From contig CASESI010000014.1 of NCBI GenBank assembly GCA_949290705.1, forward strand, positions 37,802 through 101,801: 64,000 bases of DNA, read 5' to 3'. A program made the translations under genes and the position numbers. Below, in pieces: positions 54,079 through 56,769 of this stretch. The stretch comes from an uncultured Holosporaceae bacterium (GTDB lineage Bacteria > Pseudomonadota > Alphaproteobacteria > UBA3830 > CASESI01). The first letter of the stretch is position 1; the number at the start of each line of letters is the position of its first letter. The notes beneath the pieces were generated by a model. The model was given only the letters and a program-made list of their open reading frames with translations, searched no databases and had not been told where the DNA came from.

Positions 54079-56769
54079 ATGCCAAACTTTACAACATCAT
54101 CAACAACAACGACTTTGATAAAATCCATGGAGGTCAACGCATCTAACCTTGGAAAAGCTTCTGCAAACGGTTCTGCTGAAGACTTAAACTTTTTCAAAAC
54201 CCTTGAAATGGGAAAAAATGTGATTTCCACGGGAATCAAATTAAACAGAATATTAAACGTTGCAAAACAGGGAACCCCTGAACACGTAGATAACGACCTT
54301 GCAATGATGATTGGGGATGGAGGATTTTTCGCTGTTACTGATACTTCTGACACGGATGATACATCCTTAAAATACACAAGATCAGGATATTTTCAATTCG
54401 ATAAAGATGGCAATTTGAAAAACTCTGAAGGATTGTATTTAAGAATTGCAAAACTCAATGGTGCAACTGATACGACAAATTTCATACAAAATAATATTGA
54501 CGCTGGAGATTTGGTCGCACTTAATAAAAATGACTTAACATCAAGTTTAAAAGAAACGTCAGAAATCAACCTTAATTTCACATTACCTTTACCTAAAATA
54601 GGCGATCCGATTGTTAAGAATGAATTTACAAAACAATTCTCTGCATTCGACAAAGTGGGACAAGCACACTCAATCAACTTATCGTTCCAGCGTGACCCTG
54701 AGAATAACAAAAAATGGAAAGTGTATTTACGTTCTAACGAAAATATCGAAATTAAAGACAATAAGAATAATATGGTTTTCGTGCAAGACAAGGAAAAACT
54801 TAATGATCCTTTGATGGATACAGCTGCCCCATTCGAAATAGAATTCGATAACGAAGGAAAATTATTAAAAGTCTCAAAATTAAACCAAGTCCCTGTTGAA
54901 AAAACAATCAACAAAACAGACGCAAAAGGTGAAGTATACTACCTTGCTGAAAATGGAAACTACTACACATCAATAACTTTGCCACAAAACACACAATTCA
55001 AACAAGCAACAGACGACGCTGGAAATCTTCTTTGGGAAGGTGCAGATGGAAACGGATATTTGAATGAAGCCGACGCAAAAGCATCTGGCACAACTTTGAA
55101 ATATGCCACAAATGAAGACAACAGCATACAAACAGAGCAGGTTTTAAACCAAGACGGCAAAGGCCTTTGGAAAGCTGACGACGGAAATACATATTCTGAA
55201 GATGCACTCCCTGTTGGAATTAATTTTTCTGCTCTAAAAGATGAAGGCGGAAACATATTGTATCACACAACAGATGGAGGTATCATGACCCTTGCTGATG
55301 CAAAAGACCAAGGGAAAACCATTGCGAATGCAACCAAAAATGTCAACGGCGCAGATGAAACTCTTTTCGTAAGCAAAGACGACCCAACAAAATATTACAC
55401 AAAAGATGAAGCTGTCGCTGAAAACATTGAACTCGCACAGGCATCAACCAAAGATGGAAAATTACTCTGGCAAGCAGATAATGGAAAAAGCTATATTGAT
55501 GAAGATGCAGCAAACGCTGACGGAGCTCACCTAATTCAATTACAAGATGGTAACAATGATCCTTTATTTGTCGCAGTGGATGGCACATACATTACCACAG
55601 CAGATGCCACTGCAAACGGCATAGAACTTTCACAAGCAACCAAAGGTGGCGAAAAGTTATGGCTCGCAACTGACGGTAACTACTACACCGAAACTGAAGC
55701 TGCCGCTGATCCCGCAATCATTTTTGAACAGGCAACAAAAGGTGGAGATAAATTATGGCTTGCAACCGATGGTAACCATTACACAGAAACAGAAGCTGCC
55801 GCTGATCCTGCCATCGTTTTTGAAAAAGCAATGAAAAACGGAGCTGAACTTTTTGAAGCAACAGATGGAAAAACTTACACCACTGCAGAAGCCGCTGCTA
55901 ACCCAGCTATCACGCTTAAAACTCAAACTGTCCAAAAGCAAGACCAAGATGGAAACTTACTTTGGGAAGCTGATGATGGTAACGCTTACAAAGATGATAC
56001 TGATGCAACTGCTGCTGGTACAACTTTGAAAAAAGATGGTTTGGGTGCAAACGTTCCAGCAACCGAACAAGTAAATGTTAATGCAAAAGTCCAAGCAAAT
56101 GTTATTGCGCCACAAAAAGCATTTGAAAAATCTTATGCTGCAGCCATGGCAACAGCAAAAGTTCCGTTAATGCAAAATGTGAAAATCCCTCACAAAATCG
56201 CCTCGACGGAAACCGTGAACACATTCGATTGGGAAGCCTCTACCATTATCGACGCATCGAACAAAGACAAAATCGTCAATGGCAAGACAGCCCTGACCTT
56301 CACATGGGCTGATGGAGGCGTCACAACATCCGACTTCTTTTTTGGAGAACCTTTGAAAAACAATAACACAAAAGGTTTATCAACAAAATCCTCATCATTC
56401 AGCGGAGAAATCGCGCAAAATGGAAATGCAATCGGGCAATTCCAATCGCTCAGCATCTCGAACACAGGCGTGATCACGGTTATTTATGACAACGGATTAA
56501 CAAGCGATTACGCAAAAATCCCAGTCGTGCAATTCAACGCACCAAACGCCCTAACCGCTATTTCTGACAACGCATACATCCAAACTCACGACAGCGGATC
56601 CCCTAGGTTAATGGATGGAAAAATCATCACCGGAGTCGTTGAAAAATCCTCAGTCGACCAGATCAGAAACATCATCGAGGCAAACAACACGCAGAAAACC
56701 GTCGGGTTCGTCATGAAAGCGTACGCAAAACAAAACGAAGTCGAGGACATGATCCTGAAAACACTATAA
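54079..56769 (+). CDS. flgE: flagellar hook protein FlgE, expanded (896 aa) by an internal tandem-repeat domain
   Basis: N-proximal DNDLAMMIGDGGFFAV...YTRSGYFQFDKDGNLKNSEGLYL and C-terminal ISNTGVITVIYDNGLTS...VQFNAPNALTAISDNAYIQT..SG...G.VEKSSVD match the FlgE core. The central 375 aa are repeats. Confidence 0.8.
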   Translation: MPNFTTSSTTTTLIKSMEVNASNLGKASANGSAEDLNFFKTLEMGKNVISTGIKLNRILNVAKQGTPEHVDNDLAMMIGDGGFFAVTDTSDTDDTSLKYTRSGYFQFDKDGNLKNSEGLYLRIAKLNGATDTTNFIQNNIDAGDLVALNKNDLTSSLKETSEINLNFTLPLPKIGDPIVKNEFTKQFSAFDKVGQAHSINLSFQRDPENNKKWKVYLRSNENIEIKDNKNNMVFVQDKEKLNDPLMDTAAPFEIEFDNEGKLLKVSKLNQVPVEKTINKTDAKGEVYYLAENGNYYTSITLPQNTQFKQATDDAGNLLWEGADGNGYLNEADAKASGTTLKYATNEDNSIQTEQVLNQDGKGLWKADDGNTYSEDALPVGINFSALKDEGGNILYHTTDGGIMTLADAKDQGKTIANATKNVNGADETLFVSKDDPTKYYTKDEAVAENIELAQASTKDGKLLWQADNGKSYIDEDAANADGAHLIQLQDGNNDPLFVAVDGTYITTADATANGIELSQATKGGEKLWLATDGNYYTETEAAADPAIIFEQATKGGDKLWLATDGNHYTETEAAADPAIVFEKAMKNGAELFEATDGKTYTTAEAAANPAITLKTQTVQKQDQDGNLLWEADDGNAYKDDTDATAAGTTLKKDGLGANVPATEQVNVNAKVQANVIAPQKAFEKSYAAAMATAKVPLMQNVKIPHKIASTETVNTFDWEASTIIDASNKDKIVNGKTALTFTWADGGVTTSDFFFGEPLKNNNTKGLSTKSSSFSGEIAQNGNAIGQFQSLSISNTGVITVIYDNGLTSDYAKIPVVQFNAPNALTAISDNAYIQTHDSGSPRLMDGKIITGVVEKSSVDQIRNIIEANNTQKTVGFVMKAYAKQNEVEDMILKTL
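54916..56040 (+). repeat. 11 tandem ~32-aa coding repeats inside flgE
   Basis: Recurring G..LW.A.DGN.Y....A.A.G..L..A unit. Three adjacent 96-nt copies at 55633-55920 are the most similar: QATKGGEKLWLATDGNYYTETEAAADPAIIFE, QATKGGDKLWLATDGNHYTETEAAADPAIVFE, KAMKNGAELFEATDGKTYTTAEAAANPAITLK. Confidence 0.85.

Follow-up and report, generated by a model that had tools for sequence, protein, structure and literature searches.

How does a flagellar hook protein come to be twice its conventional length, and what might the added half be for? The question is raised by one gene in a 64,000-nucleotide (nt) stretch of contig CASESI010000014.1, from an uncultured alphaproteobacterium, which as a whole we refer to as the window. 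A single intact open reading frame (ORF) at 54079..56769 on the plus strand, specifying 896 amino acids (aa) plus a stop codon, encodes the hook protein FlgE within a fliK-flgD-flgE operon, and its middle is occupied by a tandem array of approximately 32-aa units (aa 280-653, nt 54916-56037, 374 aa). To the reading that this array is a lattice-constrained structural outer layer of the hook we give an even chance of being correct.

A divergent hook protein gene

The identification of the protein as FlgE, the name given in the initial annotation, follows from four kinds of evidence, namely Pfam matches to domains D1 and D2, an NCBIfam match, gene order and a ribosome-binding site. Pfam (at gathering score) places the FlgE/F/G D1 domain PF22692 at aa 80-122 (31.9 bits against a cutoff of 27) and FlgE_D2, PF07559, at aa 183-309, aligned to profile positions 22-130 of 142 (38.3 bits against a cutoff of 22.7). 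The FlgEFG subfamily model of NCBIfam, TIGR03506, spans aa 644-866 with 112.2 bits against a cutoff of 70.25, and the order fliK-flgD-flgE is kept at all orthologous loci. The NCBIfam models of FlgE at equivalog level all scored below their cutoffs, the best being NF004242 (121 bits against 365, spanning aa 42-278), and the two Pfam families for the D0 segments, PF00460 (rod/hook N-terminal) and PF06429 (C-terminal), were both missing at an expectation value (E) below 1. The termini of FlgE are well conserved across four orthologues, the final 43 residues being nearly identical in the alignment, and we read the missing matches as divergence of the termini rather than their absence. The nearest FlgE proteins to a core-only query are 25-28% identical, in a search that is lossy here (it returned two distant FlgE proteins only and missed the known orthologues).

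An array of short tandem units inserted in the D2 region

The array was found where the initial annotation had put it (54916-56040, equivalent to aa 280-654), and its reality as a tandem repeat is not in doubt; of the 11 units counted there, nine are clear, one is degenerate and one is marginal. The consensus is x4-G-x2-L-W-x-A-x-D-G-N-x-Y-T-x3-A-x-A-x-G-I-x-L-x2-A, and every unit preserves two aromatic residues on the D-G-N hairpin, one of exposed type (W/Y/F) and the other a Y. A hidden Markov model (HMM) built from the nine obvious units matched nine units strongly (41-52 bits) and two weakly (aa 280-310, 5.7 bits; aa 438-455, 6.8 bits). The same HMM, made from the window only and applied to the arrays of two approximately 55%-identical orthologues, found eight and six units of at least 10 bits, compared with a maximum of zero to one in shuffled sequences (200 shuffles each), and the repeat is therefore far beyond chance. 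The parts of the protein, all on the plus strand, are as follows.

54079..54495 (+): aa 1-139, divergent N-terminal D0/Dc and N-terminal part of D1, border approximate (Pfam LlgE_F_G_D1; alignments to a 435-aa FlgE and to 6ndx)
54496..54915 (+): aa 140-279, N-terminal part of D2, border approximate (Pfam FlgE_D2, NF004242)
54916..55008 (+): unit 1, aa 280-310, marginal (5.7 bits with an HMM excluding unit 1; overlaps the Pfam D2 match)
55009..55107 (+): unit 2, aa 311-343, then an 11-aa linker at 55108-55140 (43.6 bits)
55141..55236 (+): unit 3, aa 355-386 (41.1 bits)
55237..55332 (+): unit 4, aa 387-418 (44.9 bits; 61-65% identical across species)
55333..55443 (+): unit 5, aa 419-455, a degenerate copy here (6.8 bits)
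55444..55542 (+): unit 6, aa 456-488 (47.2 bits)
55543..55638 (+): unit 7, aa 489-520 (48.5 bits)
55639..55734 (+): unit 8, aa 521-552, member of the only recently duplicated pair (80/96 nt identical to unit 9)
55735..55830 (+): unit 9, aa 553-584, partner of unit 8
55831..55926 (+): unit 10, aa 585-616, then a 4-aa linker at 55927-55938 (48.5 bits)
55939..56037 (+): unit 11, aa 621-653 (46.6 bits; protein 58% identical to unit 2)
56038..56208 (+): post-array 'return' segment, aa 654-710, 57 aa (alignment and predicted secondary structure)
56209..56766 (+): aa 711-896, C-terminal D2 strands, C-terminal part of D1 and C-terminal D0, borders approximate (alignments, TIGR03506)

Unit 5 is taken to be a degenerate unit because its counterpart in one orthologue, P0002, scores 33 bits, and unit 1 may instead be the end of the N-terminal part of D2. 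Unit 2 is 70-76% identical to the corresponding unit of two distant orthologues.

The segments that flank the array show where it was inserted. In the nearest conventional FlgE (P0035, 435 aa), aa 71-217 and 310-398 align to aa 64-217 and 778-860 of our protein, and a solved fragment, 6ndx, gives a similar pattern (aa 78-217 align, as do aa 754-844, the latter to 6ndx residues 225-314). The insertion therefore lies within the D2 region, D2 being the outer domain of the basic hook, and it has two parts, the array itself and the return segment, the latter with a low-confidence predicted helix at 670-692 and, in the two distant orthologues, an extra 34 aa. There are approximately 468 extra residues relative to the 435-aa FlgE, of which the array supplies 374, so the description of the protein as doubled in size is accurate. 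An outer-surface location, also proposed in the initial annotation, is supported in that the insertion site is where hook proteins bear their outermost domains (PMC5069557). The 375 aa said to separate the N-proximal and C-terminal hook motifs agree with the length of the array proper, although the gap between those motifs is in fact approximately 700 aa and includes a recognisable D2.

The array has a very acidic composition (net charge -38, isoelectric point 4.2) that includes neither Cys nor Arg. The G+C content at third codon positions (GC3) is 0.29, similar to that of host genes, in a window of approximately 32% G+C; this host-like value rules out a recent foreign origin, and the higher overall G+C of the array is explained by its Ala/Gly/Asp-rich composition. 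A compositional shift was noted further downstream. Over the last 180 or so flgE codons GC3 climbs from about 0.3 to 0.47-0.62, with a rise in the 94% strain too (lysS has a GC3 of 0.47), and from 56200 to 62000 the G+C content of the window is 0.38-0.43, compared with 0.27-0.34 elsewhere.

Constant length and purifying selection

The sequence of flgE differs by 1 and 0 nt between the window and two further, independent assemblies (from ENA and Logan; loci L007 and L008), the three assemblies were made with different pipelines, and an identical FlgE sequence is also listed with an NCBI record as its source; an expansion of the array introduced by assembly, a danger recognised beforehand, is excluded on these grounds. 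The reading frame is intact at all seven orthologous loci. All four full-length variants in the 90%-identity cluster are 896 aa long, and the orthologues from two more distant species (P0002 and P0003, from three JGI samples and with the same gene order) measure 898 and 899 aa; no others beyond the cluster emerged from approximately 15 billion proteins searched. Comparison of flgE length among relatives, as had been proposed, thus gives a length constant within 3 aa, as established from assemblies rather than from long reads.

The array shares in the constraint on the gene. Between two strains (synonymous divergence, dS, 0.33) the ratio of nonsynonymous to synonymous divergence (dN/dS) rises from 0.03 in the N-terminal core to 0.13 in the array and falls to 0.07 in the C-terminal core, and the two distant species (dS approximately 1.6) yield 0.05, 0.15 and 0.05, respectively; these values indicate that the array evolves under purifying selection. 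Conservation depends on position, with the edge units 2-4 and 11 retaining 47-76% identity across species, and the middle units 5-10 retaining 14-40%, with insertions and deletions.

The initial annotation had described three neighbouring 96-nt copies as very similar and had concluded that expansion was recent or ongoing. Two of the copies, units 8 and 9, do share 80 of 96 nt (83%; Tandem Repeats Finder reports a period of 96 and 2.1 copies), but the third, unit 10, matches them at only 52-57 of 96 nt (54-59%), and every other pair of units is 40-68% identical in DNA, mostly 40-60%. Because the sole 83% pair is present in both strains separated by a dS of 0.33, it is older than their split, and the idea of recent or ongoing expansion is not supported. 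When the strain variant L006 is compared with the window, differences are distributed patchily across units 8-10 (55639-55926): unit 8 has the most of any unit (21 nt), and in unit 9 the last 48 nt are identical and the first 48 nt differ at nine positions, which suggests occasional gene conversion among these neighbouring units.

The distant orthologues have had repeat events of their own. P0003 carries a 71-aa two-unit duplication (78% nt identity; aa 482-623 of the gene at L003), and P0002 has an 8-aa micro-repeat, KKALNKSF, in 2.2 copies within the return segment (L001, 12005-12056); their total lengths are still 898-899 aa. From these comparisons the array evolves by slow birth and death of middle units with its total length held within 3 aa. 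Such a pattern contradicts an antigenically variable coat as well as a contingency locus, and suggests that the architecture is a defined one.

The repeat unit, its predicted structure and a possible relative

The unit had been called unrecognised, and our searches bear this out. Pfam contained nothing at gathering score for it (the only hits were DUF6292, E 0.005, and DUF2188, E 0.16), NCBIfam returned models for hook, rod and basal-body proteins (FlgE/F/G) and none specific to the repeat, and PDB sequence profiles gave no match at E<0.1. An HMM search with the repeat, also proposed at the outset, was run exhaustively (HMMER) with a 28-unit profile against 1.84 billion representative proteins. 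It matched 13 proteins, the FlgE clade at E 1e-94, together with one plausible relative, P0007; all other matches outside the clade fit the hairpin only, and propeller blades, BNR units, and cadherin-like and artefactually repeated proteins were rejected as relatives for this reason. A similarity to EF-hands (6ohh, E 0.79) was set aside because the register of the Ca-binding positions is unsuitable. No significant match to PHROGs was obtained with the FlgE insert or with single units, no relative was found in a scan of GTDB genomes with FlgE, and two metagenome scans gave no match, not even when the query was P0002, itself from a JGI sample.

Structure prediction was informative at the level of secondary structure. 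The AlphaFold2 (AF2) model of full-length FlgE, from an alignment of four sequences, had a predicted local distance difference test score (pLDDT) of 40 and is usable for secondary structure only, and non-overlapping blocks of four units reached a pLDDT of 64 and a predicted template modelling score of 0.37. Both runs gave the same succession of elements (strand, turn, strand, six-residue helix, short strand), and the unit is accordingly predicted to be a beta-hairpin (L-W strand, D-G-N turn, x-Y-T strand) followed by a six-residue helix and a short strand. Foldseek, given the predicted model, found no match in the PDB at E<0.001, with LytC among the non-significant hits only; its best hits, split inteins (E 0.02, template modelling score 0.18), were rejected, the array also being free of Cys.

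P0007 (L089, 6001-8457) is an 818-aa protein with a signal peptide, a C-terminal anchor-like tail (recognised by eye) and no Pfam family; its gene adjoins a TED/SpaA/TQ adhesin gene, and it contains 15 units of the form W-x-T-S-D-G-K-x-F-x-T-x-x-E-A-x-x-H. Its period is 33-35 aa, compared with 32 aa in FlgE, and the two units share a core of W, two residues, D-G-(K/N), x, (F/Y) and a short E/A-rich helix, whereas their flanks and host proteins differ, P0007 having the features of a Gram-positive surface protein. In an hhalign comparison the two units aligned with a probability of 91% and a score of 25.5 (200 column shuffles had a mean of 6.3 and a maximum of 13.2). Small phage proteins (phrog_1578, 33851 and 5109) likewise carry the P0007 motif, but the FlgE units do not match these PHROG families, and a search for homologous proteins with a combined FlgE and P0007 two-unit profile returned nothing. 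We consider the link real as a pattern and unproven as homology; it may reflect convergence on a simple hairpin-helix motif.

What the array might do

A hook consists of approximately 120 FlgE subunits (PMC4032328). In the reading that we prefer, the D2 surface domain bears a lineage-specific insertion of approximately 470 residues, mostly the array of about 11 units, which would project from every subunit and so add a strongly acidic outer layer of approximately 1,300 repeat units per hook. The array would act like D3 and D4 of Campylobacter FlgE, making contacts between neighbouring subunits that result in a thicker and more robust hook, and selection would hold the number of units at about 11-12 while single middle units are slowly replaced through duplication and loss. 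We infer surface exposure, inter-subunit contacts and a stiffening role; the additional outer layer is suggested by the position and size of the array, and a structural layer is what best fits its constant length, the position-specific conservation of its edge units and the purifying selection on it.

Several observations weigh against this reading. With low AF2 confidence (pLDDT of 40 for full length and 64 for four units) and a blank Foldseek result, any packing between units and between subunits is conjectural, and the array has neither sequence nor fold similarity to D3/D4. Each 32-aa unit has only five to six hydrophobic positions, and the array, with its net charge of -38 and isoelectric point of 4.2, would also suit a flexible, hydrated or ligand-binding brush, and its one plausible repeat relative sits in a Gram-positive adhesin neighbourhood, which leans toward a role in surface interaction. 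Finally, fliK, the flgD-like ORF and flgE are the only hook-related genes recognised among the screened ORFs of the window.

The main rival reading, which we think unlikely, is that the array is an adhesive or ligand-binding surface (lectin-like or cation-binding) and the hook an attachment organelle or sensor of the surroundings rather than a mainly mechanical part. The aromatic residues on the D-G-N hairpin of each unit, the acidity of the array and the nature of P0007, a surface protein encoded beside an adhesin gene, are all in keeping with it, as is a motif-level likeness to the W-x-x-D-G-K-x-Y hairpins of carbohydrate-binding CROP and choline-binding repeats (the match to Toxin A, at a non-significant E of 0.16, is to the P0007 unit profile and not to the FlgE unit). 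However, no known binding repeat was matched significantly (PF01473, CW_binding_1, is absent from the Pfam matches at E<1, and PDB hits all have E>0.1), the hook is short and close to the cell and thus a worse site for an adhesin than the filament or cap, and a constant number of units with position-specific conservation is more in keeping with a defined architecture than with a sticky brush of a generic kind.

The insertion in D2 would cover the hook surface, and the array evolves two to four times faster than the core (dN/dS 0.13-0.15 compared with 0.03-0.07), with turnover of its middle units, as might be expected of a protective coat that hides the conserved D1 and D2 from flagellotropic phages, antibodies, proteases or grazers. 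We regard such a coat as improbable, given a dN/dS far below 1, the absence of length variation among the variants and the strong conservation of the edge units; the antigenic or variable surface entertained in the initial annotation is likewise argued against by purifying selection at dN/dS 0.13-0.15.

The same annotation had raised repeat-number variation as a contingency mechanism, in which a phase- or length-variable array, changing by slipped-strand or recombinational events, switches hook properties within populations. The 83% pair, the patchy strain differences in units 8-10 with their hint of occasional gene conversion, and the different duplications in different lineages lend this some colour, but it is very hard to sustain: the remaining pairs of units (40-68% identical) are too diverged for slippage, the unit is 96 nt long rather than a short simple-sequence repeat, each of the four variants has 896 aa and the three species lie within 3 aa of one another (896, 898 and 899), and the 83% pair predates the strain split. 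Near-identical units and repeat-number polymorphism, the signs by which such a locus is known, are both absent from the assemblies compared. That the array is an assembly artefact, or a functionless expansion tolerated in a decaying flgE, is scarcely credible, since the points in its favour (the AT-richness of the genome, an apparent frameshift in at least one neighbouring gene, sulP, and a FlgE lacking its usual N- and C-terminal Pfam matches) are outweighed by recovery of the sequence in three assemblies from different pipelines, a frame intact in seven of seven orthologous loci, strong purifying selection over the whole gene including the array, and a good ribosome-binding site.

Gene neighbourhood, host and remainder of the window

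The local flagellar cluster consists of the following elements in addition to flgE.

51781..53259 (+): fliK (hook-length control), at the head of the local fliK-flgD-flgE cluster (34.2 bits to Pfam Flg_hook, cutoff 29.8)
53275..54063 (+): flgD-like ORF of 262 aa, named for its position alone (flanked by fliK and flgE at every orthologous locus)
54068..54074 (+): ribosome-binding site AAGGAGA, 4 nt 5' of the flgE ATG (direct reading of the sequence)
56780..56856 (-): tRNA-Arg(TCT), downstream limit of the flagellar cluster

The ORF in the flgD position is without a Pfam or NCBIfam match, and the same is true of a conserved 154-aa ORF upstream of fliK (49870-50334). Taken with the FlgE termini and the 25-28% identity of the nearest FlgE proteins, these ORFs indicate that the flagellar proteins at this locus are unusually divergent.

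The host is best placed as a deep-branching, AT-rich alphaproteobacterium, because its GroEL is 63-69% identical to its best matches, which come almost entirely from Alphaproteobacteria, and a comparison with 185,579 species genomes revealed no close relative. Elsewhere the window consists of ordinary chromosome, with genes for GroEL, CysRS, class I LysRS, murC/murG, accBC, a porin and CptA. Downstream of flgE, a sulP/STAS transporter gene (58453-60130, minus strand) is split across two frames with a junction near 59510-59545; aa 1-207 and 196-559 of an intact 559-aa orthologue match frames -1 and -2, so that sulP is either a frameshifted pseudogene or the subject of a sequencing error. A giant ORF of 3119 aa (2267-11626, minus strand) has only weak Pfam matches to apolipoprotein/LEA-like helical repeats, at approximately aa 1276-1431.

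Comparison with known enlarged flagellar proteins and significance

The closest parallel in size and position is the large FlgE of Campylobacter and Helicobacter (D3/D4; PDB 5AZ4 and 5JXL; PMC5069557, PMC5097172). There, too, the hook protein is approximately doubled by an insertion in D2, and an extra outer layer is expected; in C. jejuni approximately 386 aa (D3 and D4) are inserted mid-D2 (PMC5069557), compared with approximately 468 here, and the extra domains render the hook more stable and robust (PMC5097172). In contrast to the present array of 32-aa units in an alphaproteobacterium, D3 and D4 are globular beta domains without short internal repeats and without detectable similarity to it, and the corresponding model, TIGR02489 (flgE_epsilon), matched our protein only at aa 49-123, with 43.3 bits against a cutoff of 412.85. 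The FlgE of Caulobacter crescentus differs in that its D3 is one small, non-repetitive domain (PDB 5AY6; PMC5069557), and our protein scored 72.5 bits with the Caulobacter-type model NF040922, whose cutoff is 750. The nearest analogy for how the protein has grown is provided by the giant flagellins of Oceanospirillales, in which tandemly repeated 'domain extension' regions produce thicker filaments (PMC6248924); as here, tandem duplication in the surface-exposed middle region has enlarged an axial flagellar protein, although the protein is flagellin and not a hook protein, the repeated element is a whole domain rather than a 32-aa unit, and the sequences are unrelated.

In the literature searched we found no paper on a short-tandem-repeat insert in a hook protein, in agreement with the initial annotation, which knew of none in any described hook. 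Insertion into D2 is thus itself known, and the enlargement of a hook through an array of 32-residue repeats of undescribed type would be a new way of building an outer layer. The D2 insertions described from Campylobacter, Helicobacter and Caulobacter are globular, and this case would show that the same site can hold a long array of very short repeats, conserved in length and under selection. A further-reaching proposal, which we advance tentatively and with some doubt, is that the array represents an undescribed 32-aa hairpin-helix-strand fold forming an ordered, acidic sheath of approximately 1,300 units, its 11-12 units per subunit fixed by the hook lattice even as single units come and go, and that it shares ancestry with the W-x-x-x-D-G-K/N-x-F/Y module of Gram-positive surface proteins and small phage proteins. 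If this is true, then the array is a new, portable building block for bacterial surface structures. It is in any case a candidate for a new repeat fold, a clean case of repeats turning over while total length is constrained, and a natural test of how much mass, and of what architecture, a universal joint can carry while bending at each rotation.

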